From positions 2,572,438 to 2,636,437 of the forward strand of contig OY762226.1 in NCBI GenBank assembly GCA_963665465.1: a DNA stretch of 64,000 bases, given 5' to 3'. The notes below the pieces were generated by a model. That model saw nothing but the letters and a program-made list of their open reading frames with translations. It made no database searches and was not told the DNA's origin. The DNA comes from Vicinamibacterales bacterium. Its GTDB lineage: Bacteria > Acidobacteriota > Vicinamibacteria > Vicinamibacterales > UBA8438. The stretch's first letter is position 1. Every line of letters begins with the position of its first letter. The position numbers and the translations under genes are program-made. Below, one piece after another: positions 46,078 to 63,354 of this stretch.

Positions 46078-46767
46078 TCACTCGCACACGACGCCGTCGT
46101 TGTCGCCGTCGCGCATATGACGGTAGGCGGGATGGTTGCGGGGCACCGGCGCTATCCCGTGCCGGCGGGCCTCGGCGCAGGAGATCCGGCCGTTCCGGTT
46201 GTCGTCCCAGCGGGCGAGCGCGGCCCGCGCGTTGGCCGGCGGCGCGGCCGCCGGCGCCTGCGGTGCGGCGGAGCCCCACAGGCCGCGGCCGGCTCGCCGG
46301 GCATCGCGTTCGAGCCCCCGGAAGCGATCGAGGTGCCTGAACGGGAAGCGGGTGTAGGCATGACCGTAGCCGCGCCTGATGATCTCGGCGTTGACGAACG
46401 TGCCGTCCGGCAGGTGAACGTACGCCAGGGTCCGCCCGTAGCGGTCGGTCCGCTGCTGGTCGTACTCCAGGCGCACCCGCTTGCCGTCGACCAGGCGTCT
46501 GGTGAAGGCGCTGGCTTCCTTCCCGAAGAACTCGACCGGTCTGCCCGGGTGGACCGTCTCCGGCGTATCGACGCCGATCAGGCGCACCCGGCCGATGCCG
46601 CGCACGATGATCGTGTCGCCGTCGACGACGCGCTCGACCACCTGGGCGGCCGACTCGGCGGGCGCGGCTGCGAGCAGCGTCGCGGCCGCGAGGACGAGCC
46701 GGACGACCGGCGCGAGCCTGCCGGAGCGGGCAATAATCGCGACGCCGGGACGCGGGACATGTGTCAA
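46078..46767 (-). CDS. Secreted thermonuclease (SNase family) with a C-terminal Excalibur Ca-binding domain
   Basis: VDGDTI, VRLIGVDTPE, DRYGRTLAY, RGLW; C-terminal DGDNDGVVCE; signal peptide ending AESAA. Start uncertain. Confidence 0.9.
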   Translation of the reverse strand: MTHVPRPGVAIIARSGRLAPVVRLVLAAATLLAAAPAESAAQVVERVVDGDTIIVRGIGRVRLIGVDTPETVHPGRPVEFFGKEASAFTRRLVDGKRVRLEYDQQRTDRYGRTLAYVHLPDGTFVNAEIIRRGYGHAYTRFPFRHLDRFRGLERDARRAGRGLWGSAAPQAPAAAPPANARAALARWDDNRNGRISCAEARRHGIAPVPRNHPAYRHMRDGDNDGVVCE

Positions 46768-47039
46768 CGATGGCCACCCCGCCGGCCTCGGGACCCGACA
46801 TGGCCAGGAATTGCCATCGGGTCACCGCCGGCAGGTGGCAATTATCGCGTACTCGACCGGGCCGGCGCACGGTCCGGGAGCAGCCCGGGAGCGGCACGTC
46901 CCGGCCGCGGTCGTGGGAGAGGCGGGCCTGCCGGCGCGGCCGGGTCCGTGTGGCGCGGGCGCCCGCGCCGCCGGTGGCGGCCTGGCCCTGGCGGGGCGTG
47001 GCGTCCGGGCGGGCGCCGCAGCGTTCTATACTGCGCGAG

Positions 47040-49940
47040 GTGGCCGACCTGCGCAGTGACCTCGAGACCCGCCTCGAGGGCGAGGTCCGCTTCGACGCGG
47101 TCTCGCGCGCTCTCTACTCGACCGACGCCAGCGTCTACCGGATCGAGCCGCTGGGCGTGGCCATCATTCGCTCCCGCGAGGATGTGCTCGCGGCGATCGC
47201 CTGCGCCCGCCGGCACGGCTGCTCGATCACCGCGCGCGGCGGCGGGACGTCGCAGGCGGGTCAGGCCATCGGTGCGGGCCTGCAGCTCGACACGTCGAAG
47301 TACTTCAACCGCCTGCTCGAGGTGAACGTCGAGGAACGCTGGGCGCGGGTCGAGCCCGGCATCGTGCTCGACGAGCTCAACGCCCGGCTGGCGCCGCACC
47401 GCCTGCGCTTCGCGCCCGACATTTCGACCGCCAGCCGCGCGACCGTCGGCGGGATGATCTCGAACAACTCGGCCGGCGCCCGGTCGGTGCTCTACGGCAA
47501 GACGATCGACCACGTCCTCGACGTGCAGGTCGCCCTCGGGGACGGCTCGGTGGCCCACCTGCGCCCACTCTCCGCGGACGCGCTCGAGCGGGCCTGCGCG
47601 GCGCCGACGCGGGAGGGTGCGTGCTACCGCACCGTCCGCCGGTTGGCGGCGGAGCAGGCCGGCGAGATCGAGCGGCGGTACCCGAAGATCGTGCGCCGGG
47701 TCGGAGGCTACAACCTCGATGCGTTCGTCGGCGCGGCCGCGCCGGCCGCGCCGTTCAATCTGGCGAAGCTGATCGTCGGCTCCGAGGGCACGCTCGGGCT
47801 GATCGTCGAGGCGCGCCTCAACCTGGTGCCGCTGCCGGCCGCCAAGGCCGTGCTGACCATCGAGTACGGCGACCTGCTCGACGCGCTCGGGGAGACGCCG
47901 GCCATCCTGGCGCACGGCCCCTCGGCCGTGGAGGTGATGGATCGGTCCATCCTGGACCATGCCAGGGGGCATCCCGCGCTCGACGAGATGCGGCGGGCGG
48001 TGCTGCGTACCGAGTGCGGCGCGTTGCTCTGCGTCGAGCTCTACGACGAGTCGACCGAGGCGCTCCGGACGCGGCTCGGCCGGTTGGAGGACATGCTCCG
48101 GGCGCGGGGCGTGGCGGCGCACATGACCCGCGCCACGTCGCCGGCCGATCAGGCGCGCATCTGGAAGCTGCGCGAGTCGTCGCTCGGCCTCTCGATGGCC
48201 ATGAAGGGCGACGCCAAGAGCATCTCCTTCGTCGAGGACACGGCCGTTGCCCCGGACAAGCTGCGCGACTTCATCGCGCGGTTCCTCGGCGTCATCCGGC
48301 GCCACGGGACGACCGCCGGCATCTACGCCCACGCCTCGGTCGGCTGCCTGCACGTGCGGCCGGTCGTCAACATGAAGACGGCGCAGGGCGTGCGCCAGTT
48401 CGAGTCGATCGCGAACGAGATCGCCGATCTGGTGCTCGAGTTCGGGGGCGCGCTCTCCGGCGAGCATGGCGACGGGCTGGTGCGCGGACCGTTCATGGAG
48501 CGGATGTTCGGCCCGGCGCTGTACGAGGCGTTCCGCACCATCAAGCGGACGTTCGATCCGGACGGGCTGTTCAACCCGGGCAAGATCGTCGACTCGCCGC
48601 CGCTCACCGCCAACCTGCGCTACGGCGCCGGCTACCGGACCCCGGATCCGCCCGCCGCCTTCGACCACGCCGACTACGGCGGCCTGGGGCGCGCGGTGGA
48701 GATGTGCAGCGGCGTCGGCGCCTGCCGCAAGACGCTCAGCGGGACGATGTGCCCGTCCTACATGGCGACGCGCGACGAGGCGCACTCGACGCGCGGCCGC
48801 GCCAACGCGCTGCGGATGGCAATGGCCGGCGGGCTCGCCCCGGCCGGACCCCGCGGCGCCGGGCTCGGCGGACGCGGCGTGTACGACGTGCTGGACCTGT
48901 GCCTCGAGTGCCGGGCGTGCAAGACGGAGTGTCCGACGGGCGTCGACATGGCGCGGCTCAAGAGCGAGTTCCTCGCCGACTACTGGCGCCGGCACGGCAT
49001 CCCGGTGCGCGCGCGCGTGCTCGGACACATCCACGATCTGGCGGCGCGGACCGCGCGCTGGGCGCCGCTGGTCAACCCGTGGCTGGAGAGCGGCTGGGTC
49101 CGCGCGCTCGGCGAGCGGCTGCTCGGCATCGACCGCCGCCGCTCGCTGCCGCGCTGGGCGGCGCGCCCGCTCGCGGACCGCTGGCGCGACCGGGGGCCGG
49201 CGCGGGCCGGCCCGCCGGATGCCGTCCTCTTCAACGACACCTTCACCAGCTACTTCGATCCGGAGGTCGGCCTGGCCGCGGCCGACGTGCTGGAGGCCGC
49301 GGGGCTGGCGGTCGGTCTGGGACCGGACGTCTGCTGCGGACGACCGCTGATCTCCCAGGGGCTGCTGTCCGCGGCGCGCGAGCGGGCGGCGGACGTGGTG
49401 CGGCGCCTCCACGCGACGGCCGCGGCCGGCACCCCCATCGTGCTTCTCGAGCCGAGCTGCCTGTCCGCCCTGGTGGACGACGTCCCGGCCCTGCTGCGCG
49501 GGGAGGCGCAGGCGCAGGCGCGCGACGTGGCCGGCGCGTGCATCCTCTTCGAGGACTACCTGCGCCGCCGCCTCGACGAGCGGCCCGCCGCGCTGGCGCT
49601 ACGCGCCGGGCCCGCGGAGATCCTGTTGCACGGCCACTGCCACCAGAAGTCGCTGGGTCTGGTGTCGGCGGCCAGGGCGCTCCTCGAGCGGATCCCGGGC
49701 GCGCGGGTCACCGATCTGGACGCCGGCTGTTGCGGCATGGCGGGGTCGTTCGGCTACGCGCGGGAGCACCTGGAAATCTCGCGGCAGATCGGCGAGCGTC
49801 GGCTGCTGCCCGCCGCGCGCGGCCTCGGTCCCGGCGGCATCCTGGTCGCGGCCGGCACGTCGTGCCGCCACCAGGTGCGGGACTTCGCCGGCGTCGAGGC
49901 GCTGCATCCGGCGGTCCTGCTGCGGTCGCTGCTGACGTGA
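47040..49940 (+). CDS. FAD-binding and Fe-S oxidoreductase (GlcD/GlcF fusion, YdiJ/D-lactate dehydrogenase-like)
   Basis: YSTDAS, RGGGTS, GSEGTL, GCLHVRP, GEHGDG, CxxCxxCxxxCP, CCG domains. GTG start at 47040. Confidence 0.9.
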   Translation: MADLRSDLETRLEGEVRFDAVSRALYSTDASVYRIEPLGVAIIRSREDVLAAIACARRHGCSITARGGGTSQAGQAIGAGLQLDTSKYFNRLLEVNVEERWARVEPGIVLDELNARLAPHRLRFAPDISTASRATVGGMISNNSAGARSVLYGKTIDHVLDVQVALGDGSVAHLRPLSADALERACAAPTREGACYRTVRRLAAEQAGEIERRYPKIVRRVGGYNLDAFVGAAAPAAPFNLAKLIVGSEGTLGLIVEARLNLVPLPAAKAVLTIEYGDLLDALGETPAILAHGPSAVEVMDRSILDHARGHPALDEMRRAVLRTECGALLCVELYDESTEALRTRLGRLEDMLRARGVAAHMTRATSPADQARIWKLRESSLGLSMAMKGDAKSISFVEDTAVAPDKLRDFIARFLGVIRRHGTTAGIYAHASVGCLHVRPVVNMKTAQGVRQFESIANEIADLVLEFGGALSGEHGDGLVRGPFMERMFGPALYEAFRTIKRTFDPDGLFNPGKIVDSPPLTANLRYGAGYRTPDPPAAFDHADYGGLGRAVEMCSGVGACRKTLSGTMCPSYMATRDEAHSTRGRANALRMAMAGGLAPAGPRGAGLGGRGVYDVLDLCLECRACKTECPTGVDMARLKSEFLADYWRRHGIPVRARVLGHIHDLAARTARWAPLVNPWLESGWVRALGERLLGIDRRRSLPRWAARPLADRWRDRGPARAGPPDAVLFNDTFTSYFDPEVGLAAADVLEAAGLAVGLGPDVCCGRPLISQGLLSAARERAADVVRRLHATAAAGTPIVLLEPSCLSALVDDVPALLRGEAQAQARDVAGACILFEDYLRRRLDERPAALALRAGPAEILLHGHCHQKSLGLVSAARALLERIPGARVTDLDAGCCGMAGSFGYAREHLEISRQIGERRLLPAARGLGPGGILVAAGTSCRHQVRDFAGVEALHPAVLLRSLLT

Positions 49941-52718: not shown

Positions 52719-52852
52719 CAAGGCGCGCACGGCGCGGGGCGCAGCCCGCCCGGTTGAAGCCGTCTAGGAGGCTGCGCCGTAGAACGGCGTAGACTCCTAG
52801 CGAGGGTTGGTTGGGCGGCAACCGGAGCCGGAGGCGACGATTGCCGGGCTAG
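52719..52852 (+). repeat. Composite repeat: deleted module B + CTAG-hairpin A-CTAG + module C-CTAG
   Basis: AAGGCGCGCACGGCGCGGGGCGCAGCCCG...TTGAAGCC; CTAGGAGGCTGCGCCGTAGAACGGCGTAGACTCCTAG; CGAGGGTTGGTTGGG...GCCGGGCTAG. Confidence 0.9.
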
Positions 52853-54297
52853 AATCCGACCGTCGTCTGCAGGTAGAAGAAGTGCGCGGAGTGCAGCTTG
52901 AAGTCCGACGCCCGGAGGTAGCCACCGCCCATGAAGTACCCGTACCCCGCCTCGAGGCCGACCCGCCAGGCGCGGGCACGGAGAGTGACGTCGATCTCGC
53001 TGCCCACGTCGGCCGCGGCGTGCGGGTCGCCGCCGGCGTGCACGACGCCGGCGGCGGCGTTGTACCACGCATCCGTGCCGGGTGCGACCAGTGCGAAGTG
53101 CTGATAGGCGACGCGCACGGAGGCGCCGCCGGGCAGCGCCGCGTCCACGGAGGCCTCGACGTTGCGGAGGTTCTGCAGGGCGAACAGATCCATCGTCCCG
53201 TAGTAGACATGGTTGAGCGGGTACAGGTTGTCGAACGTTCCGTGCACGCCGTCGTGCGGATCCTCGTCGCCGCTGCCGAAGTTGTAGGCTGCCCCGAGCT
53301 TCGGCCGCCCCGGCAGGCGGGTCGTGAACGATCCGCCGAGGTGCACCATCGCCGCCCGATGGTCGAGGCCTGAGTAGCTTCCGGCCTGCGCGGCCAGCTC
53401 GCCGTCGAAGGCCCATGGCCCGTAGCGGGCGTCGATGCGCGTCCCGAAGGTGTGAACCGCATCGGCCAGACGCCCCTCGCGCCGCCGGAGCCAGTAGCCT
53501 TCGACGGCGCCGTCGGGCAGGATCGCGCCGTCGGTGTAGTACACGCCGTGGAGCTGGCTGTTGAACAGACGGCTGCGGGTGGGCCTGTGGTCGTTGAGGC
53601 CGCGCGGCGTGACGGGCACGAGGCGCGTGGCGAACGCGTCGAGCCGACGCCCGGCGCCGATGCCGATCCGGAGTCGGGCGCCGTCGAACACGCGCGCCGT
53701 GTTGACCCATTCGAGCGGCGAGACCAGGCGCTGGGATCCGTACTGCAGCTTCTGGCGCCCGATGCGCACTGCCATCGGGACCCGCGACGACGCGGGCGGC
53801 TCGATGTCGACGTAGGCCTGGTGGAAGTCGAGCCGGTCCGCGAAGACGTTCGGCGTGCGAGTCTCGCTGATGGCTTCCTCACCGTGGATGCGCGCGTCCT
53901 GGAACTCGACGACGCCGGTGACCCGACGGCTCGGCCGCCAGGTCAGGCCGAGGCGGAGCCGGGAGAGGAGGAAGCCCTCGTCGTTGCCCGCCCGCGCGTC
54001 GTCGAACCTGAAGTTGCGGCGGCTCTCGCCGCGCAGCCGCAGTTGTGAGCCGATCGTCAGGCCCGGCAGGATCTCGCGCCAGTCCGGGTTGGCCTCCCGC
54101 GGCGCCTGACGGCTTCCTCCCGACGCGTCCGCACGGGGCGCCGGCGGTGGGCTCGTCCGGGCCGCGCCGGCGTTCCCGGCGGCGTCGGACTGGGCCTGGC
54201 CCTCGAGGGGGCAGGCGAGCAGGAGGCCGAGCCAGAGCACCAGCGAACGCGTGCGGTGATCGGGCCGGGGCGCTGGCGGAGACTCGTGCGGCGGCAT
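52849..54297 (-). CDS. Alginate-export (AlgE-like) outer-membrane beta-barrel protein
   Basis: Signal peptide, SRLRL, QDAR, HQAY, RIGRQ, FDG, GD..P.DG..GTFDNLYP, C-terminal Phe. Confidence 0.8.
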   Translation of the reverse strand: MPPHESPPAPRPDHRTRSLVLWLGLLLACPLEGQAQSDAAGNAGAARTSPPPAPRADASGGSRQAPREANPDWREILPGLTIGSQLRLRGESRRNFRFDDARAGNDEGFLLSRLRLGLTWRPSRRVTGVVEFQDARIHGEEAISETRTPNVFADRLDFHQAYVDIEPPASSRVPMAVRIGRQKLQYGSQRLVSPLEWVNTARVFDGARLRIGIGAGRRLDAFATRLVPVTPRGLNDHRPTRSRLFNSQLHGVYYTDGAILPDGAVEGYWLRRREGRLADAVHTFGTRIDARYGPWAFDGELAAQAGSYSGLDHRAAMVHLGGSFTTRLPGRPKLGAAYNFGSGDEDPHDGVHGTFDNLYPLNHVYYGTMDLFALQNLRNVEASVDAALPGGASVRVAYQHFALVAPGTDAWYNAAAGVVHAGGDPHAAADVGSEIDVTLRARAWRVGLEAGYGYFMGGGYLRASDFKLHSAHFFYLQTTVGF

Positions 54298-54312
54298 GCC
54301 CGGCCTTCCCTA

Positions 54313-54328
54313 TCAAGCCGCGTGCCAA
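54313..54328 (-). promoter_or_regulatory. Putative sigma54 promoter of the porin gene
   Basis: Minus strand TTGGCACGCGGCTTGA: canonical -24 box, with GA instead of GC at -12. Confidence 0.55.
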
Positions 54329-54461
54329 GTCCACCCGCCGCCCGGCCGCGGTCCGACCAACCGCCCGATTGCGCCGTCGCGGCCCCCGGATCGCCGTCGA
54401 TCGGGCGCGTCGAGCGGTCGCAGCGGGTCCTTCCGGTGTCCGCCGCTTTCGTCGACGGGCC

Positions 54462-54728
54462 GCACAAATCCGACACTTTTGTGCTGTGCAACACGAGCGG
54501 CCAACGCAGGGCCGCCTCGCTGACCAGGGTACAGGCACCCGCCGAATGCATCAGAATCCACAAATCTGTGGCGTTTCGTGTTCCATTCGACATTCTTGTT
54601 TCGGCCGCAGTCGATCCGGACGCGGCCCGAGTGCTCCCTGATTGGCCTGCCGCGATCCAGAGCAGTCCGGATCCTGCACGAACGGCGTGACATTCTCGTT
54701 AATTCCGCACAGCCGTGTCGGTTTGCGC
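54462..54728. promoter_or_regulatory. Pair of mirror-image putative activator (UAS) sites
   Basis: GCACAAATCCGACACTTTTGTGC (54462-54484, +) and GCGCAAACCGACACGGCTGTGC (54707-54728, -). Confidence 0.45.
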
Positions 54729-54848
54729 ACAGGCATCTACATTTCCGTGTGTCGGAGCCGCTCCTGATCGCGCCTCGCCGCGGCGGGCCGACGTCCGGCA
54801 ACCCGGTTCTGCGGCGCGATCGGACCCTTCCGCTGCCGCCGCCCCATG

Positions 54849-54865
54849 CTGGCCCGCCTCTTGCT
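54849..54865 (+). promoter_or_regulatory. Putative sigma54 promoter of the nitrate operon
   Basis: CTGGCCCGCCTCTTGCT: GG-N10-GC spacing is exact, 31 bp before the ATG at 54897. Confidence 0.7.
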
Positions 54866-54896
54866 ACAGGAGGCCGCGACGGAGGTACACCGCAGC

Positions 54897-56324
54897 ATGG
54901 ACGTTACCGGCAAGGCAACCCGAATTCGACTCTTCAGCATCAACACACCGCAGATGCGGGCGTTCCACATGACGTGGTTCGCGTTCTTTCTCTGCTTCTT
55001 CGCGTGGTTCGGCATCGCGCCGCTCATGACGATCGTCCGCGACGAGATGTCGCTGACCCAGTCGCAGATAGGCTGGCTCGTCATCGGATCGGTCGCCATC
55101 ACCGTCGTCGCACGCCTGCTGATCGGCTGGCTGTGCGATCGCATCGGGCCGCGGTTGGCCTACACCTGGCTGCTGATTCTCGGCTCGCTGCCGGTGATGG
55201 GCATCGGCCTGGCGCAGAGCTTCGAGACGTTCCTGATCTTCCGACTGCTGATCGGCGTCATCGGCGCGGCGTTCGTGATCACGCAGTACCACACCTCGAT
55301 CATGTTCGCCCCGAACGTCGTCGGCACCGCGAACGCCACGACGGCGGGATGGGGCAACCTGGGGGGCGGCGTGACCCAGCTCGTCATGCCGATCGTCCTC
55401 GGCATCCTCACGGTCGGCGCCTACATCCCGTTCACCGATATCCGGCTGTTGCCCGGGCTCGGCCTGAGCGACGCCGCCGGCTGGCGGCTGGCGATGGTGC
55501 TGGCCGGGGCGCTGTGCGCGCTGGTGGGCGTGGCGTACTACCTGCTGACGCAGGACGCGCCGGAAGGCAACTACCGGGCGCTGCGCGCGGCCGGCAAGCT
55601 GCCGCCCAGGCACAGCGTCAAGGGATCGTTCGCCATGGCGGCGAAGGACCCGCGGGTGTGGGTCCTCTTCGTCATCTACGGCGCCTGCTTCGGCATCGAG
55701 CTGACGATCAACAACGTCCTCGCCCTGTACTTCATCGACTACTTCGACTTCTTCGCGTCCATGAGCGTGGCGCAGGCCGTGCAGTGGGCCGGCGCGGCGG
55801 CGATGCTGTTCGGCCTCATGAACGTCTTCGCGCGCACGCTCGGAGGCGCGTTCGGCGACCTGTTCGGCCGGCGTTGGGGGCTGTCCGGGCGCGTGCGTTG
55901 GCTGTTCATCGTGCTGTTCGCCGAGGGGCTCGCCCTGATGCTCTTCTCGCAGATGGCCGCGCTGGCGGTGGCGATCCCCGCCCTCATCGTCTTCAGCCTG
56001 TTCGTGCAGATGTCGGAAGGGGCGACCTATTCGGTCGTGCCGTTCATCAACAAGCGGGCGCTGGGGTCGGTGGCGGGCATCGTCGGCGCGGGCGGCAACG
56101 CCGGCGCGGTGGCGGCCGGCTTCCTCTTCGGGGGCGCCATCCCGTGGCCGACGGCGTTCCTGATCATCGGGGCGCTGGTCACGGCCTCCGCGTTCCTGGC
56201 GTTCGCGGTGCGCTTCGACACGGCGACCGAGACCGAGGCGCAGACAGCGCTCGACGCCGCCCTGGCCGACCGGCGCGCCGGATTGGCGGGCGCCCCCGCC
56301 GCACCCCTCGAAGCCGCGAGCTAG
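54897..56324 (+). CDS. narK: MFS nitrate/nitrite transporter (NarK/NRT2 family)
   Basis: MRAFHMTWFAFF, GPR, nitrate signature GTANATTAGWGNLGGG, FARTLGG, GIVGAGGN. Confidence 0.92.
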   Translation: MDVTGKATRIRLFSINTPQMRAFHMTWFAFFLCFFAWFGIAPLMTIVRDEMSLTQSQIGWLVIGSVAITVVARLLIGWLCDRIGPRLAYTWLLILGSLPVMGIGLAQSFETFLIFRLLIGVIGAAFVITQYHTSIMFAPNVVGTANATTAGWGNLGGGVTQLVMPIVLGILTVGAYIPFTDIRLLPGLGLSDAAGWRLAMVLAGALCALVGVAYYLLTQDAPEGNYRALRAAGKLPPRHSVKGSFAMAAKDPRVWVLFVIYGACFGIELTINNVLALYFIDYFDFFASMSVAQAVQWAGAAAMLFGLMNVFARTLGGAFGDLFGRRWGLSGRVRWLFIVLFAEGLALMLFSQMAALAVAIPALIVFSLFVQMSEGATYSVVPFINKRALGSVAGIVGAGGNAGAVAAGFLFGGAIPWPTAFLIIGALVTASAFLAFAVRFDTATETEAQTALDAALADRRAGLAGAPAAPLEAAS

Positions 56325-56333
56325 GAGTCTGCC

Positions 56334-58442
56334 ATGGTCAATCCCGCCGAGGTCTGGAAGGCGCGGAAGCACAGCTTCGAGGTCTGGCCCGACGTGCTGC
56401 GTCACGCCGCGGCGCGGACGCCGATGGCCGAGATCGAAACGCCCGACCTGGAGCGCATGAAGTGGTACGGCTTCTTCTACCGCAAGCGCGATGCGCCCGG
56501 CCGCTACATGAACCGGATCCGCGTCACCGCCGGCGAGCTCACGTCCGACCAGGCCCGCGAGATCGCGGCGCTGGCGTACGAGTACGGCCACGGCATCGTC
56601 GATGTCACGACGCGTGCCAACGTGCAGGTGCAGGGACTGGAGGTCGCGCACCTGCCGCGGGTCGCCGAGCGGCTGGCTGCGGTCGGCCTGACCTCGAAGC
56701 AGACCGGCCACGACAACGTGCGGAACGTGTTCGCGCATCCGTTCAGCGGGGTTCTGCCGGACGAGCTGATCGACACGCGCCAACTGTGCCGGGACGTCAC
56801 CGCGCTGTTCGTCGACAGCCGCGAGTACTCGGATCTGCCGCGCAAGTTCAACATCTGCCTCAACGGTGCGGCCGAGCATTCGGTGCACTTCTGGACGCAG
56901 GACCTCAGCTTCCTGGCCCGCCGCGTTGGCCGGGAGGTGCTGTTCCAGGTGCTGGTCGCCGGCACGCAGGGTCAGAACCCGCACCTCGCGTGGCACTTGC
57001 CTGTACTGGTCGACCCGGATCAGGTCACGGCCGTCGCGGCCGCGGTGCTCGACCTGTTCCGCGCCCAGGGGTCGCGCGAGCGTCGCCATCAGGCGCGCCT
57101 GCGCTACCTGGTCGAGCGGATCGGCATCGAGGGCGTGCTGGCGTTCGTCCGCGAACGCGTCGCGCTGCGCCCGTGGCCGGATCTTCCGGCCCCGTCGCCC
57201 GCGAGCCGCTACGACGATCTGATCGGCTGGTTTCCGCAGCGAGCGGCCAATCGCTGGACGATGGGGTTGTGCGTGCCGCTCGGTCGGCTGACCTGGCGGC
57301 AGCTCGAAGCCGTGGCGGTGCTTGCCGGGCGCTGGGGCGACGGGCAGCTCCGGACGACGCACGAGCAGGGCCTGGCCGTCATCAACATCCCGACCGGCTT
57401 CAAGGACGCCGCGGCCACCGCCGCCGCCGCGGTCGGCTTGAGCATGCACGCCGACACGCTGGCGCGCAACACGGTGGCCTGCACCGGAACCCAGTTCTGC
57501 AACATCGCGGTGACCGAGACCAAGGGCGCCATGTTCCGGCTGATCGACACGCTCCGCCGGCGGGCGCTCGCGCTGCACGGCATCCGCATTCACATGAGCG
57601 GCTGCCCGTCGAGCTGCGCGCAGCACTTCACGGCCGACATCGGGCTCAAGGGGGTGCGCGTCCGGAGGCTGCTCGGCACGCGCGAGGGTTTCGACGTCTT
57701 TCTGGGCGGCGGGGTGGCGGGCGACGTCCACCTCGGGCTGCGCTACCGGCTGGGCGTCGACGTGGAGCAGCTCCCGCTCCTCATCGAGGAGGTGGTGACG
57801 GAGTACTACCTGAAGCATCAGCCGGGTCAGACGTTCAGCGCCTACTGGCGCGCGCGGCTGCGCGAGCTGGAGGCGGCGAAGGTGGGCGAGGGAGACTACC
57901 GGCCCTCCACCTGGGTGTGCGAGCGCTGCGAGCACCGCCACCGTGGCGAGGATCCGCCCGTGTTCTGTCCCGGCTGCGCCGGCGTGCGCCGGCTGTTCGC
58001 ACGGCTCGGGGAGGACGAACAACCGCGAACCCACCCCGGCGGGACGGGGGCAAGCGCCGCCGCCGGGCCGGCGCCGGCTGCGGCGCCGGCTCCGGCCCGG
58101 GACGACGGGTTCGTGTTCGCCGCGCGCGCGGACGCCCTGCGCGAAGGCGCCGGACTGGAGGTCGAGATCGGCGGGCGGAGCTGCGCGCTGTTCCGCGTGG
58201 ACGGCCAGGTGCACGCCCTCGAGGGCCACTGCCCGCACGCGGGCGGGCCGCTGGCGGAGGGCAGTCTCAGCGCGGGCGTGGTGACCTGCCCGTGGCACGG
58301 ATGGACATTCGATGCCTGCACCGGATGCAGCCTCGAGCCGCCGGGCAACGACGTGGCGCGCTACGAGACGCGCGTCGAGGCCGGCGCCGTCTTCGTGCGG
58401 CCGCCGCACGCGCCGGCGCGGCCGCTGACAAGGGCCGGGTGA
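56334..58442 (+). CDS. nirA: Siroheme nitrite reductase (NirA-type) fused to rubredoxin-like and Rieske domains
   Basis: TTRANVQ, DNVRN, LPRKFN, ACTGTQFC and SGCPSSC (siroheme-[4Fe-4S] ligands); CERC-x12-CPGC; HCPHAGGPL...CPWH. Confidence 0.85.
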   Translation: MVNPAEVWKARKHSFEVWPDVLRHAAARTPMAEIETPDLERMKWYGFFYRKRDAPGRYMNRIRVTAGELTSDQAREIAALAYEYGHGIVDVTTRANVQVQGLEVAHLPRVAERLAAVGLTSKQTGHDNVRNVFAHPFSGVLPDELIDTRQLCRDVTALFVDSREYSDLPRKFNICLNGAAEHSVHFWTQDLSFLARRVGREVLFQVLVAGTQGQNPHLAWHLPVLVDPDQVTAVAAAVLDLFRAQGSRERRHQARLRYLVERIGIEGVLAFVRERVALRPWPDLPAPSPASRYDDLIGWFPQRAANRWTMGLCVPLGRLTWRQLEAVAVLAGRWGDGQLRTTHEQGLAVINIPTGFKDAAATAAAAVGLSMHADTLARNTVACTGTQFCNIAVTETKGAMFRLIDTLRRRALALHGIRIHMSGCPSSCAQHFTADIGLKGVRVRRLLGTREGFDVFLGGGVAGDVHLGLRYRLGVDVEQLPLLIEEVVTEYYLKHQPGQTFSAYWRARLRELEAAKVGEGDYRPSTWVCERCEHRHRGEDPPVFCPGCAGVRRLFARLGEDEQPRTHPGGTGASAAAGPAPAAAPAPARDDGFVFAARADALREGAGLEVEIGGRSCALFRVDGQVHALEGHCPHAGGPLAEGSLSAGVVTCPWHGWTFDACTGCSLEPPGNDVARYETRVEAGAVFVRPPHAPARPLTRAG

Positions 58443-58446
58443 CGCG

Positions 58447-60150
58447 ATGACGCTTGTCGACCACTACCTCCGCGAGCAGCAGACGACGGCGGCCGACCGC
58501 TTCGCGCAGGCGCACGACGCCGCGCGGGCCGGCGGGCGTCCGGCGCTGGCCGGACGCTATTCGGCGCTCATGCCGGCGACGCCCCCGGCTGCCGGCCAGC
58601 AGTACGCCTTCGACGTCGATCTGGACGCCTGCTCGGGGTGCAAGTCGTGCGTCGCGGCCTGTCATGCGCTCAACGGCCTCGAGCAGGAGGAGTCCTGGCG
58701 GGACGTGGGCCTGCTGCACGGCGGCAGCCGGAGCCTCCCGGTCATCCAGCACGTGACGACCGCCTGTCACCACTGCCTCGACCCGGCCTGCATGCACGCC
58801 TGCCCGGTGGAGGCCTACGAGAAGGATCCGGCCACGGGCATCGTCAAGCACCTCGACGACCAGTGCTTCGGGTGCCAGTACTGCACGCTGGCCTGTCCCT
58901 ACGAGGCGCCCAAGTACAGCCGCGCCAAGGGCATCGTCCGCAAGTGCGACATGTGCAGCGACCGGCTCGCGGAGGGCGAGGCCCCCGCCTGCGTGCAGTC
59001 GTGTCCCAACGGGGCCATCGCGATTCGCGTGGTCGATGTCGAGCAGGTCGTCGAGGACTCGGAGACCCATCTGTTCGTCCCGGGCGCGCCGGAGCCGGCC
59101 CTGACGCTGCCGACGACCGCGTATCGGACCGCGCGCGTCCTGCCGCGCAACATGGTGCCGGCCGACTATCACACCGTGCGCCCCGGACAGGCGCACTGGC
59201 CGCTGATCCTGATGCTCTTGCTCACGCAGCTCTCGGTCGGCGCGTTCCTGGTCGAGCGGCTGCTGGAGCTGGTCGTTCCCGGTGCGCTGACCGCCAGCAT
59301 CCGTCCGGTCCACAGCGCGAGCGCGCTGGTCTTCGGCCTGCTCGCGCTCGCCGTCAGCGTGCTGCACCTGGGGCGGCCGCGCTACGCCTACCGGGCCGTC
59401 CTCGGGTTGCGCCACTCCTGGCTCAGCCGCGAGATCCTGGCGTTCGGGGTGTTCGCGGGCCTGGCAATGGTCTACGCCGGTTGGTCGTGGGCGGTGTCGA
59501 CAGGCTGGCTGGAACGGGTGGGCGGCTGGGAGGCGGCCGCCGGCACGGCAGCTGTCGGGGCCGGACCCGGCTGGTGGCTGGGATGGGGCGTTGCGCTGTC
59601 GGGCACTGCCGGCATCCTGTGTTCCGTCATGGTCTACGAGTACACGAAGCGCGATTTCTGGAACGGCCCGGCCACGGCGTGCCGCTTCCTCCTGACGACC
59701 GCCGTGCTGGGGCTCGCCGCGGCCTGGCTGCCGCTGCTGATCGTCGCCGGCGGCAGCGACGCGGGCCTGGCGACCGTCGCGGTCGATCGCTACGGCACCG
59801 TCCTCTGCCGGGGACTCGTCGTCGCGGCGACCGCGAAGCTGGTGTTCGAGGCGGCCCTGTTCCGGCACCTCGCCGCGCGCTCCACCACCTCGCTGAAGCG
59901 CACGGCCTGGCTGCTGACCGGCGCACTCTCCAACGTCACGCTGGCGCGCTTCGCGGCCGGGCTCCTGGGCGGCCTCGTCATGCCCGCCCTGCTGCTGAGC
60001 CACGTGTCGACGAGTCCCGAGCACGGCCAGGATCTCGTCTTCGTCGTGCTGGTCGGGATGTTGTTCAGCGCCTGTCTCGCCGGCGAGCTGCTGGAACGCT
60101 ACCTGTTCTTCGCGGCGGTCGCCTCGCCGCGAATGCCCGGGACGCCGTAA
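58447..60150 (+). CDS. Fusion of a DmsB-like 4x[4Fe-4S] domain and a DmsC/YnfH-like membrane anchor
   Basis: [41 protein letters not shown]...CVQSCP; then multiple TM helices with HLGRP and SWLSRE. Confidence 0.85.
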
Positions 60151-62339
60151 TGCTGCGCCAGCGCGACGGGCATCTGACCCGCGATCTGCTCCGTACGCCC
60201 GGCGGGTTCGGCCTCGGGCAGGTGCCGGCCAGGGCCAAACCGGACGCCACCACGGACGTGGTGTGCGGCTACTGCTCGACCGGCTGCAGCCTGACCGTGC
60301 ATCTCAGGGACGGCGACGCGGTGGGCCTCACCCCGGCCGTCGACTACCCGGTGAACCGCGGCGTCGCCTGCCCGAAGGGATGGGAGGCGCTGGCCGTGCT
60401 CGAGGCCGGAGACCGGGCGACGGTGCCGCTCCTGCGCGACGCCGCCGGCGTCCAGCGCGCCGCGAGTTGGGATGCCGCCCTGCGGGCGATGGCCGAGCGC
60501 TTCCGGGGCATCCAGGCGCGTCACGGACCGGAAGCGGTGGCGTTCCTCAGCACGGGGCAGATGGCGACCGAGGAGATGGCGCTGCTCGGGGCGCTGGCCA
60601 AGTTCGGGATGGGGATGGTGCATGGCGACGGCAACACGCGCCAGTGCATGGCCACCTCGGTCGTGGCGTACAAGCAGGCGTTCGGCTTCGATGCGCCGCC
60701 GTACACCTACCGCGACTTCGAGGAATCGGACGTCATCGTCTTCGTCGGCGCCAATCCGTGCCTCGCGCATCCCATCCTGTGGGAGCGCGTGCTCCGCAAT
60801 CCGCACGATCCCGCCGTCGTCGTCATCGATCCGCGCGTCACCGAAACGGCGATGCAGGCGACCGAGCACCTGGCGCCGTATCCCAAGTCGGACCAGGCGC
60901 TGTTCTACGGCATCGCCCGGATCCTGATCGAGCGGGGCTGGATCGACAGGGACTACATCGCCGCGCACACCCGCGACTTCGATGACTATGCCGCCGCAGT
61001 CGAGCCGTTCACCCTCGAGCGCGTTTCCGCCGCCACCGGCCTGGAGCCGCGGGCCATCGAGCGCCTGGCCGGGACGATTCACCGCGGCCGCCGCGTGTCG
61101 TTCTGGTGGACGATGGGCGTCAACCAGAGCTACCAGGGGGTGCGCACCGCGCAGAGCATCATCAGCCTCGCGCTGATGACCGGCAACATGGGGCGGCCCG
61201 GCACCGGCGCGAACTCCATCACCGGCCAGTGCAACGCGATGGGGTCGCGCCTGTTCAGCAACACCACCAACCTGCTGGGGGGGCACGACTTCGCCAATCC
61301 GGTCCATCGGGACAAGGTGGCGGGCGTGCTGGGCATCGAGGCGAAGGTCATCCCGACGCAGGCCAGCTGGGCCTACAACGAGATCATCGAAGGCATTCTG
61401 CGGGAACGGATCAAGGGTCTCTGGATCGTCTGCACCAACACGGCGCATTCCTGGATCAACCAGAGCCAGGCGCGCGACATCCTGGGGCGCCTCGACTACC
61501 TCGTCGTGCAGGACATGTACGCCACCACGGACACGGCGCGCATGGCCGACCTCGTCCTGCCGGCCGCCGGCTGGGGGGAAAAGGACGGGACCTTCATCAA
61601 CTCGGAGAGACGCATAGGCCGGATCAGGAAGGTGGCGCGGGCGCCGGGCCAGGCGCTCGCCGACTTCGCCATCTTCAAGCTCGTGGCCGAGTACTGGGGG
61701 TGCGGCGGGATGTTCCAGGCGTGGGAATCGCCGGCCGCCGTGTTCCAGATCCTGAAGCGGCTCTCGGCGGGCCAGCCCTGCGACATCACCGGCATCGCCG
61801 ACTACGAGATGCTGGACGAGAGCGGCGGCATCCAGTGGCCCTTCCCGGCCGGGCAGTCAGCCGCGCCCGGGCGCGCGGAGCGGCGCCTCTTCGAGGACGG
61901 CCGCTACTACCACCCGGACGGGCGCGCCCGGTTCCTCCACGAGGAGCCGCGCCCGCTGCCGGAGCCGCCGAACGAGCGGTTCCCGCTGCTGCTCCTGACC
62001 GGCCGCGGCAGCGCCGCGCAGTGGCACACGCAGACCCGCACCGCCAAGTCGGCGGTGCTGCGGAAGCTGTACCCGGCGGAGATCTACGTGGAGGTCAACC
62101 CGGTCGACGCGAAGGCGCGCGGCGTGACCTCGAACGGCACCGTGCGCGTCGAGTCCCGCCGCGGCCGCATCGTCGCCCGGGCGTTCATCACCCGCTCGGT
62201 CCAGCCGGGCCAGGTCTTCATCCCCATGCACTACGAGGCAACCAACCGGCTCACCGACGCGGTCTTCGACCCCTACTCGAAGCAGCCGTCCTACAAGGCG
62301 TGCGCCGTGGAGCTGCGGCGCATCGCGGCCTTGGGCTGA
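60150..62339 (+). CDS. nasA: Molybdopterin nitrate reductase catalytic subunit (NasA/NarB-like)
   Basis: CGYCSTGC...CPKG [4Fe-4S] motif, RQCM Mo ligand, [36 protein letters not shown] overlaps the upstream TAA; no Tat signal; no C-terminal BFD domain. Confidence 0.88.
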
Positions 62340-62544
62340 GCGGCTCGCCCTCTTCAGGGGACGGGGATGATCGCGGCGATCGCCAAGGCGGATCCGCTTC
62401 GCCAGGTTGCCGTAGCGAGTCGCTGTTCTGCGACCGGATCGGCGTCGGCACCATCCGGCCCAGCATAATGGATGGGCGGATGACAGAACCGGTCGGGGCT
62501 GGTGCGTCGGCTCCCGCGCACCGCATGGACGGCTGGGAGACCGT

Positions 62545-63354
62545 TCACCGCCGCGGCTGGCAGCGCGGGCAGAAATGCGTGCCGCGCTGGGCGATGACGA
62601 TGCGCCGGACGCGCGTGCCGCACGTCGGGCATGGCTCGCCGGCGCGGCCGTAGATCCGGATCTGGCGCTGGAAGGCGCCCGGCGCTCCCTGGCCGTCGCG
62701 GTAGTTGCTGATGCTGCTGCCGCCGGCCGCGATGGCGTCCTGCAGCACGGCCCGGATGGCCGCGTGCAGTTCTCCCGCCTTGCGCGGGCCGACGCCCGCG
62801 GCGCTCCGCTCCGGGTGCAGCCGGGCGCGGAACAGCGCTTCGTCCGCGTAGATGTTGCCGAGGCCGCGCAGGAACGCCTGGTCGAGCAGGAGCGCCTTCA
62901 GCCTCGCCTTGCGGGGCGCCAGCCGGTCGGCGAAGGCGTCGCGGCCGATCTCCAGCGGGTCGGGGCCCAGCGCGGCCAGACGCGGGGGCAACCCCTCGGA
63001 CCACTGCCAGCGGCCGAACTTGCGGATGTCCTGGAAGACTACCGAGGCTCCGTCGTCGAGCGTCATCCTGGCCCGCGTGTGCTCCCCGGGCTGGCCGTTC
63101 AACAGGAGGTTCCCCGTCATCCGCAGGTGAATGACCAGCAGCGAGCAGCGCTCGTCCCGGCGCAGCCCGAGCAGCAGGTACTTGCCGTGCCGGTCGAGCC
63201 GCTCGATGCGCTGGCCGGCCAGGCGCTCCTCGGTGACGCGCGCGTCGCCGACGCATGTCCGGGGCCAGAGGAACGAGACGGCCCGGATGGTGCGTCCCTC
63301 GAGGGCCGGGGCCAGCGTGCGGCGGACCGTCTCCACCTCGGGCAGCTCGGGCAT
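62545..63354 (-). CDS. mutM: Formamidopyrimidine-DNA glycosylase
   Basis: MPELPEVE, HLRMTG, GLGNIYADE, C-terminal CxxC...CPRCQ zinc finger. Confidence 0.97.
   Translation of the reverse strand: MPELPEVETVRRTLAPALEGRTIRAVSFLWPRTCVGDARVTEERLAGQRIERLDRHGKYLLLGLRRDERCSLLVIHLRMTGNLLLNGQPGEHTRARMTLDDGASVVFQDIRKFGRWQWSEGLPPRLAALGPDPLEIGRDAFADRLAPRKARLKALLLDQAFLRGLGNIYADEALFRARLHPERSAAGVGPRKAGELHAAIRAVLQDAIAAGGSSISNYRDGQGAPGAFQRQIRIYGRAGEPCPTCGTRVRRIVIAQRGTHFCPRCQPRR

Follow-up and report, generated by a model that had tools for sequence, protein, structure and literature searches.

Introduction

Textbook assimilatory nitrate reductases are soluble enzymes that receive their electrons from ferredoxin, flavodoxin or NADH. 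Here we describe a locus in which a nitrate reductase of this kind appears to be linked to the membrane quinone pool. The locus lies in a 64,000-nt stretch (the window) of contig OY762226.1, from the genome assembly of a Vicinamibacterales bacterium (GCA_963665465.1), and all coordinates below count from the start of the window unless another contig is named. Four co-directional open reading frames (ORFs) on the plus strand encode, in this order, a NarK-type transporter, a NirA-type nitrite reductase, a single protein in which a DmsB-type ferredoxin domain is joined to a DmsC-type membrane anchor (the DmsB::DmsC-type fusion), and a NarB/NasA-type nitrate reductase (NasA). On balance we favour the reading that NasA and the fusion form a cytoplasm-facing, membrane-anchored and quinol-fed complex within a nitrate-assimilation operon.

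Among described systems, the sulfite:quinone oxidoreductase SoeABC from Allochromatium vinosum and Aquifex aeolicus is the closest to this module in predicted topology. No other described complex iron-sulfur molybdoenzyme has A and B subunits that are thought to face the cytoplasm; its DmsC-like anchor is inverted and the quinone site is placed on the cytoplasmic side (PMC8076601). The window module resembles it in having four [4Fe-4S] clusters in B, no haem in C and the same quinol-site residues. It differs from SoeABC in that its catalytic subunit belongs to the Nas/Nap/Fdh clade and not to the SoeA clade, in that B and C are one polypeptide, and in that it would run from quinol to substrate, opposite to sulfite oxidation. 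The initial annotation of this DNA, made from the letters and their translations, described DmsB and DmsC as serving periplasmic molybdenum enzymes, a description that omits SoeABC as a cytoplasm-facing precedent (PMC8076601).

Like the window module, the periplasm-facing DmsABC and PsrABC combine a molybdenum bis-pyranopterin guanine dinucleotide (Mo-bisPGD) subunit with a 16-Cys ferredoxin subunit and an eight-helix quinol anchor. DmsABC is marked by a Tat signal on its catalytic subunit and by an anchor whose N-terminus lies outside. Unlike them, the window module has no twin-arginine (Tat) signal, the charge bias of its anchor is opposite, its B and C parts are fused and its catalytic subunit is of another clade. 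NarB and NasA/NasC share with it the catalytic domains, the Cys-Met motif, the cytoplasmic location and an operon that also encodes a nitrate transporter and a sirohaem nitrite reductase. These enzymes are soluble, however. Their electrons come from ferredoxin, from flavodoxin or from an NADH diaphorase, and a BFD domain or NasG is often the carrier in between, whereas the window NasA has no BFD domain, no diaphorase and a membrane partner that is always adjacent. NarGHI is membrane-bound and quinol-fed, has a cytoplasmic active site and works with NarK. Its NarG is of another molybdenum-enzyme clade, and its di-haem NarI oxidises quinol on the outer side in a redox loop, whereas the window anchor is of the haem-less DmsC type.

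According to a family-wide phylogeny, four-cluster or anchor subunits do not occur in association with the Nas/Nap/Aio/Fdh clade (PMC7331816). In a later survey of 47,011 family members, Nas is handled as a cytoplasmic enzyme, and such partners are unmentioned in the available portion of that work (PMC10100899). A comparison of Acidobacteria genomes gives nasA genes without partners in its accessible text (PMC5900883). Searches of full-text literature, a scope that leaves subscription journals largely outside, turned up no account of a DmsB/DmsC-type partner for any Nas enzyme. Supply of nitrate assimilation from the quinone pool does not seem to have been described.

Conservation of the fusion beside nasA

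When genomes were scanned for the pattern, with one genome per species, a fusion relative was confirmed in at least 580 species genomes. The best 80 of these relatives were used for every locus count out of 80 given here; 37 of the loci were labelled Acidobacteriota, 42 Planctomycetota and 1 Longimicrobiales. In 78 of them the next gene after the fusion, on the same strand, encoded NasA, and the other two ended 11 and 262 bases past the fusion, leaving adjacency in 78/78 informative loci from three phyla. The gap between the two genes varied between about -6 and 370 bp (median 36). Judged from these genomes, the pairing of fusion and NasA is far beyond chance. A representative library contained 889 clusters at E ≤1e-30, and the carriers included soil Vicinamibacterales as well as marine and freshwater Planctomycetota.

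In an even sample of 151 Planctomycetota genomes, the fusion was present in 11 (E ≤1e-60) and NasA followed it in 11/11. The Planctomycetota pairs ranged down to 34-37% identity in the fusion and 40-41% in NasA. Among 151 sampled Acidobacteriota genomes, a set that includes the unpublished G049, on which none of the conclusions depend, the close pair was detected in the window's own genome (G000) and in G110 only. Distant pairs were present in G087 and G099 (identity 41% for NasA and 34-39% for the fusion). Conservation of the fusion beside nasA had been named in the initial annotation as a point on which its proposal could fail; the genes were adjacent in the 78 loci, in the 11 Planctomycetota genomes and in the two distant Acidobacteriota pairs.

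A NasA homologue was found in 13/151 Planctomycetota genomes (E ≤1e-120), and two of these were without the fusion. The first carried a fused NADH-type pyridine-nucleotide oxidoreductase and a BFD domain. This 1193-aa protein (genome G165, locus L123, 3093-6674, minus strand) combines the NasA-type part with the NADH-type pyridine-nucleotide oxidoreductase, Rubredoxin_C and BFD; it looks like a self-contained NADH nitrate reductase, and an NrtA-like binding protein adjoins it. The second lay directly after a plain 502-aa NirA. This nirA-nasA pair has a layout like that of cyanobacterial nirA-narB clusters.

The fusion protein and its predicted quinol site

The fusion gene (58447..60150, plus strand) encodes 567 aa, in which Pfam recognised Fer4_11 at residues 103-193 and DmsC at residues 247-343. 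The DmsC match scored 43.3 bits against a cut-off of 22.3; the TIGR02951 DmsB model scored 131.7 bits, below its cut-off of 214.1. The ferredoxin domain (58597..59037, plus strand, residues 51-197) contains 16 Cys in four groups (62/65/68/72, 107/110/115/119, 140/143/146/150 and 167/170/182/186), enough for four predicted [4Fe-4S] clusters. When the fusion was compared with 117 diverse relatives (39-86% identical), all 16 Cys were kept in 116 of them.

The C-terminal part is a DmsC/SoeC-type (NrfD-like) membrane domain with eight predicted helices (59197..60114, plus strand, residues 251-556). An AlphaFold2 (AF2) model built from the 117 sequences had a predicted local distance difference test (pLDDT) of 92.5 and a predicted template modelling score (pTM) of 0.92; it replaced an earlier fold from 11 sequences that was poor (pLDDT 57.5) and was discarded. 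When the model was compared with structures in the PDB, the N-terminal half matched FdnH, ArrB and PsrB and the C-terminal half matched PsrC and ActC.

E. coli DmsC, taken from NC_000913, was aligned with the fusion. His65, Ser82, Ser85 and Glu87 of DmsC corresponded to His307, Ser324, Ser327 and Glu329, which lie in the predicted quinol-site loop (59365..59433, plus strand, His307 to Glu329), and Arg271 of DmsC aligned with Arg551. The four loop residues were invariant in alignments of relatives; in the set of 117, His307, Ser324 and Glu329 were present in 117/117 fusions and Arg551 in 116/117. Replacement of His65 in DmsC blocks quinol oxidation, and SoeC carries the same set of His65, Ser82, Ser85 and Glu87 (PMC8076601). 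The alignment supports the view that the fusion holds an intact DmsC/SoeC-type quinol site.

Predicted orientation in the membrane

No twin-arginine motif was found in NasA or in any of the 117 fusions (0/117). The initial annotation had described the catalytic subunit as lacking both a Tat signal and a BFD tail, and the sequence and the Pfam search (no BFD match in NasA) agreed with this. Because the Tat signal is absent from both NasA and the fusion, a complex of the two should face the cytoplasm.

Lys and Arg residues were counted in loops 2, 4 and 6 plus the C-terminus, which lie on the side of the ferredoxin domain, and in loops 1, 3, 5 and 7. The count was higher in the even loops plus C-terminus in 117/117 fusions, with medians of 15 and 3 and a smallest difference of 7. 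The bias in E. coli DmsC was reversed (4 against 8). The DmsC of a DmsABC-like set in the window's own genome had the same bias as E. coli DmsC, opposite to that of the fusion. By the positive-inside rule, loops rich in Lys and Arg lie on the cytoplasmic side. Applied to these counts, the rule supports a cytoplasmic location for both the ferredoxin domain and the predicted quinol site of the fusion.

The DmsABC-like set, which is of the conventional kind, lies outside the window on the minus strand (G000:C1:3635761-3639657). Its dmsB-like and dmsC-like genes are separate, and its molybdenum enzyme bears the twin-arginine signal SRRSFLK. A second fusion-like match in the own genome was traced to this split dmsB and dmsC beside the enzyme with the Tat signal, and was rejected as a second copy of the fusion.

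NasA and its predicted complex with the fusion

The nasA gene (60150..62339, plus strand) encodes a 729-aa NarB/NasA-type Mo-bisPGD nitrate reductase with the Pfam domains Molybdop_Fe4S4, Molybdopterin and Molydop_binding. Its FS0 [4Fe-4S] motif (60264..60371, plus strand; Cys39, Cys42, Cys46 and Cys74) was invariant in 16 sequences. From the alignments, Cys166 (60645..60647, plus strand), in the motif RQCMAT, is the predicted molybdenum ligand; the motif aligned with RLCMAS of Desulfovibrio desulfuricans NapA. The best NCBIfam matches were to the Fdh-alpha (top), NasA and NasC models, and the equivalog models for haloarchaeal NasA and for NasC (NF041323 and NF047855) scored 463 and 403 bits, far below their cut-offs of 1000 and 1100. 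A formate dehydrogenase, as the top match would have it, was rejected in view of the Cys-Met ligand motif and the narK and nirA context; the three formate dehydrogenases that scored higher have Cys or Sec followed by His at the molybdenum-ligand position. Since the Cys-Met motif is NapA-like and narK and nirA are neighbours, a nitrate reductase is the sound reading of the sequence.

NasA begins with a conserved extension of about 36 residues before the FS0 Cys motif (60150..60257, plus strand, residues 1-36), in which residues were invariant in the alignment. The extension was present in all fusion-linked NasAs examined, including the distant ones, and absent in 2/2 NasAs without the fusion. 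When NasA (16-row alignment) was modelled together with residues 1-250 of the fusion (117-row alignment), so that the model covered the ferredoxin side and left the membrane domain outside, the scores of the three runs were 0.86, 0.89 and 0.89, against 0.00 for the best of 3 controls. That mark was reached by 58/80 solved complexes and 2/110 mismatched pairs. The runs agreed in at least 80% of contacts and the partner pLDDT was at least 81. In the model, NasA residues 70-79, around the FS0 Cys74, touch fusion residues 60-77 at the first cluster, and the interface also takes in NasA residues 1-35; the N-terminal extension is predicted to rest against the fusion's ferredoxin domain. By analogy with NarG, another possible role for the extension is that of a former signal peptide or of a peptide bound by a chaperone.

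Solved alpha-beta complexes of molybdenum enzymes exist, for example FdnGH, PsrAB and ArrAB. The initial annotation had proposed modelling the pair, and an interface was obtained, although with similar complexes already solved the score of 0.89 against 0.00 shows likeness to them and is not proof of binding. The model is consistent with binding of NasA to the fusion in the cell. The contrary view is that the fusion serves another enzyme or acts alone and that its position beside nasA reflects shared regulation only. Neighbouring genes indeed often encode proteins that do not bind, and a mirror-tree comparison of the fusion and NasA (r = 0.96 over 70 pairs) was not used as evidence of binding because such a correlation is expected for any co-inherited neighbours. 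We nevertheless regard this view as highly improbable: the two genes were adjacent on one strand in every informative locus and in 11/11 Planctomycetota genomes, down to about 35-40% identity, the model passed with its controls at 0.00, and the N-terminal extension occurs only on fusion-linked NasAs and falls within the modelled interface.

Electron donor and quinone

No NAD(P)H-binding domain was found in the four operon genes with Pfam or NCBIfam. In the genome, which is a single contig of 5.85 Mb, 98.4% complete, with nearest relatives labelled Vicinamibacterales, neither NirB nor NarG (TIGR01580) gave a match above the curated cut-off. Two futalosine-pathway genes of the MqnA/D family scored above cut-off, MenA was not found in the genome and UbiA was below its cut-off, and on this basis the quinone is likely menaquinone made by the futalosine route. 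Going by midpoint potentials, menaquinol can readily reduce nitrate. We infer that quinol is the donor of NasA. The distinct architecture proposed in the initial annotation, with quinol driving nitrate reduction in the cytoplasm, thus gains support from the gene adjacency, the complex model, the charge bias and the quinol-site residues, the donor itself being the inferred part.

NirA and the nitrite reductases of related loci

The nirA gene (56334..58442, plus strand) encodes a 702-aa sirohaem/[4Fe-4S] nitrite reductase (Pfam NIR_SIR and NIR_SIR_ferr) with C-terminal extensions. It scored 362 and 351 bits with the NCBIfam ferredoxin-nitrite reductase models, both below the cut-offs. The extensions hold a rubredoxin-like CxxC...CxxC motif (57912..57980, plus strand, residues 527-549), with a weak RUBY_RBDX match below cut-off, and a NirD/NasG-like Rieske [2Fe-2S] domain (58113..58397, plus strand, residues 594-688) with the ligand motifs CPH (CxH) and CPWH (CxxH). 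A NasC/NirB diaphorase and a free ferredoxin are absent from the cluster, as had been noted initially. Since the Rieske domain is fused to NirA, the statement on free ferredoxin is true, yet a ferredoxin-like domain is present in the operon and had been overlooked.

The nitrite reductase beside the pair was a NirB-NirD fusion in 40/80 loci, a NirA-Rieske protein that also bears an FNR-like NAD(P)H domain in 18/80, and a NirA-Rieske protein without a flavin module, as in the window, in 15/80. It was partial in 2/80, and none was seen in 5/80, where fewer than 900 bases were available upstream. The FNR-bearing proteins are about 950 aa long (for example L022, 4032-6890) and carry the FAD/NAD(P)H domain in the same protein; the extra domain was present or absent even between close relatives, such as L018 and L026. 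Every nitrite reductase of the close clade carried a Rieske domain. The distant pair in G087 stood with NirA and a CysJ-like flavoprotein and that in G246 with NirB; the fusion was kept in both, and Pfam gave no Rieske match on the nitrite reductases of either. When the types were placed on a NasA tree (a quick search, midpoint-rooted, with loci lacking near-full matches left out), at least 12 changes of nitrite reductase type were counted while the fusion-NasA pair stayed constant. Our reading of this pattern is that the fusion would be NasA's own partner and that the nitrite reductases bring their own electron supply.

The same loci allow a different route, in which NAD(P)H would pass electrons through the flavin and Rieske groups of the nitrite reductase to the four clusters of the fusion and on to NasA. 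The membrane domain would then only anchor the proteins near NarK or connect them to the quinone pool as an overflow. A chain of this kind is described for Paracoccus, where NasB, which uses NADH, delivers electrons to the nitrate reductase NasC by way of the Rieske protein NasG (PMC5424462). Given this likeness, the Rieske domain on all close-clade nitrite reductases and the NAD(P)H module in 58/80 loci keep an NAD(P)H route to NasA in play. Even so, we judge it unlikely. The window operon has no flavin module; its genome has no NirB above cut-off, and the FNR domain of the relatives found only a 23% match there outside the operon. A mere anchor would not need the quinol-site residues that are kept in 117/117 fusions. 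The nitrite reductases of G087 and G246, with no Pfam Rieske, still stand beside the fusion, and where NasA carries a fused NADH module of its own, the DmsB::DmsC-type fusion is missing.

Operon boundaries and flanking genes

The four genes are tightly coupled, in agreement with the initial description. The gaps are 9 bp between narK and nirA and 4 bp between nirA and the fusion gene, and the TAA stop of the fusion gene overlaps the ATG of nasA as TAATG. The narK ORF (54846..56324, plus strand) has 492 codons and encodes a NarK-family nitrate/nitrite transporter of the major facilitator superfamily (Pfam MFS_1, NCBIfam NarK family). Codons 1-17 of this ORF (54846-54896) have no counterpart in relatives, whose alignments start at residues 15-18, and translation probably begins with the ATG near position 54897. 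Downstream of nasA lies an Fpg-type DNA glycosylase gene on the opposite strand, and upstream of narK lie divergent genes for an alginate-export-family porin and an M3 peptidase, indicating that the unit consists of the four genes. A scan of 54200-62600 found no promoter-like sites, and its 2 terminator-like sites against 2.1 expected were uninformative.

The alginate-export-family outer-membrane porin (52849-54297, minus strand) is separated by about 550 bp from the divergent narK, and it might be an operon-linked anion or nitrate porin. Farther upstream, a large plus-strand ORF (46761-49940) with FAD-linked oxidase domains, a 4Fe-4S dicluster domain and a CCG domain resembles a fused glycolate/D-lactate dehydrogenase-type enzyme and is unrelated to the nitrate module. 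Contigs of a sponge metatranscriptome (X1) were 90-95% alike on pieces of all four operon genes. They were rejected as evidence of expression because RNA libraries can hold DNA and because the contigs stem from relatives.

Discussion

We propose the following sequence of events. NarK would import nitrate. The fusion would be held in the membrane by its anchor, and its N-terminal four-[4Fe-4S] domain would lie on the cytoplasmic side, where NasA would dock on it. Quinol, probably menaquinol, would be oxidised at a site on the cytoplasmic side formed by His307, Ser324, Ser327 and Glu329. Electrons would then run through the four clusters of the fusion to FS0 of NasA and on to Mo-bisPGD, where nitrate would be reduced to nitrite, and NirA would take the nitrite to ammonium. 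The physiological role would be assimilation.

Because quinol oxidation and nitrate reduction would take place on one and the same side of the membrane, the nitrate step should be electroneutral. On established bioenergetic grounds, any energy gain would arise upstream, for example at NADH:quinone oxidoreductase. A quinol:nitrate oxidoreductase of this same kind might serve mainly as an electron sink or for redox balance at low oxygen, in a dissimilatory, Nap-like way, with assimilation as a secondary role. Its chemistry is that of a respiratory-type complex iron-sulfur molybdoenzyme, and a genome survey of Acidobacteria notes that a part for nasA in dissimilatory nitrate reduction has been proposed for strains that lack Nar and Nap (PMC5900883). 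We consider a sink of this sort very unlikely as the main role, as the module always stands with an assimilatory sirohaem nitrite reductase, usually with narK as well, and the same-side arrangement of quinol and active sites would be expected to yield no proton gradient.

Several observations weigh against a quinol-fed complex of NasA and the fusion. In G110, which belongs to the window's family, the operon is split and partly degraded, and the intact nasA lies beside remnants of the fusion only. One locus of this genome (L115, G110:C1:4026000-4037500) holds narK and nirA, then a fusion whose reading frame changes near residue 161, and residues 1-144 of nasA; the other (L116, 4120000-4134000), 92 kb away, holds fragments of narK and the fusion followed by the intact nasA. 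Either duplication followed by rearrangement or an error in the assembly could explain this layout. The topology was derived from simple hydropathy and a positive-inside count, and the pass of the complex model may owe something to the solved alpha-beta complexes. In 58/80 loci (40 NirB-NirD and 18 NirA-Rieske-FNR) the nitrite reductase comes with an NAD(P)H module of its own. Such modules had been overlooked in the initial annotation, whose overall interpretation is supported to the extent that sequence, genome comparison and modelling reach.

In operons of the window type, the Rieske domain of NirA may draw on the same iron-sulfur chain as NasA, so that all eight electrons from nitrate to ammonium would come from menaquinol. 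We think this extension distinctly doubtful. If it held, nitrate assimilation would be a branch of the respiratory chain, and energy would be recovered at NADH:quinone oxidoreductase for each electron pair, compared with burning NAD(P)H or ferredoxin directly.

The quinol-fed complex of NasA and the fusion, for its part, would be the second inverted DmsC-type anchor after SoeABC. It would contradict the published view that four-cluster and anchor subunits never came together with the Nas/Nap/Fdh clade (PMC7331816). Current annotation names the fusion 'DMSO reductase anchor subunit' or 'formate dehydrogenase iron-sulfur subunit' and thereby hides a nitrogen-cycle gene. The module would add the membrane quinone pool as a third supply line to assimilatory nitrate reduction, and with at least 580 species genomes it is not rare. 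If NasA is indeed quinol-fed, the energy cost of growth on nitrate changes for the groups that carry the module.

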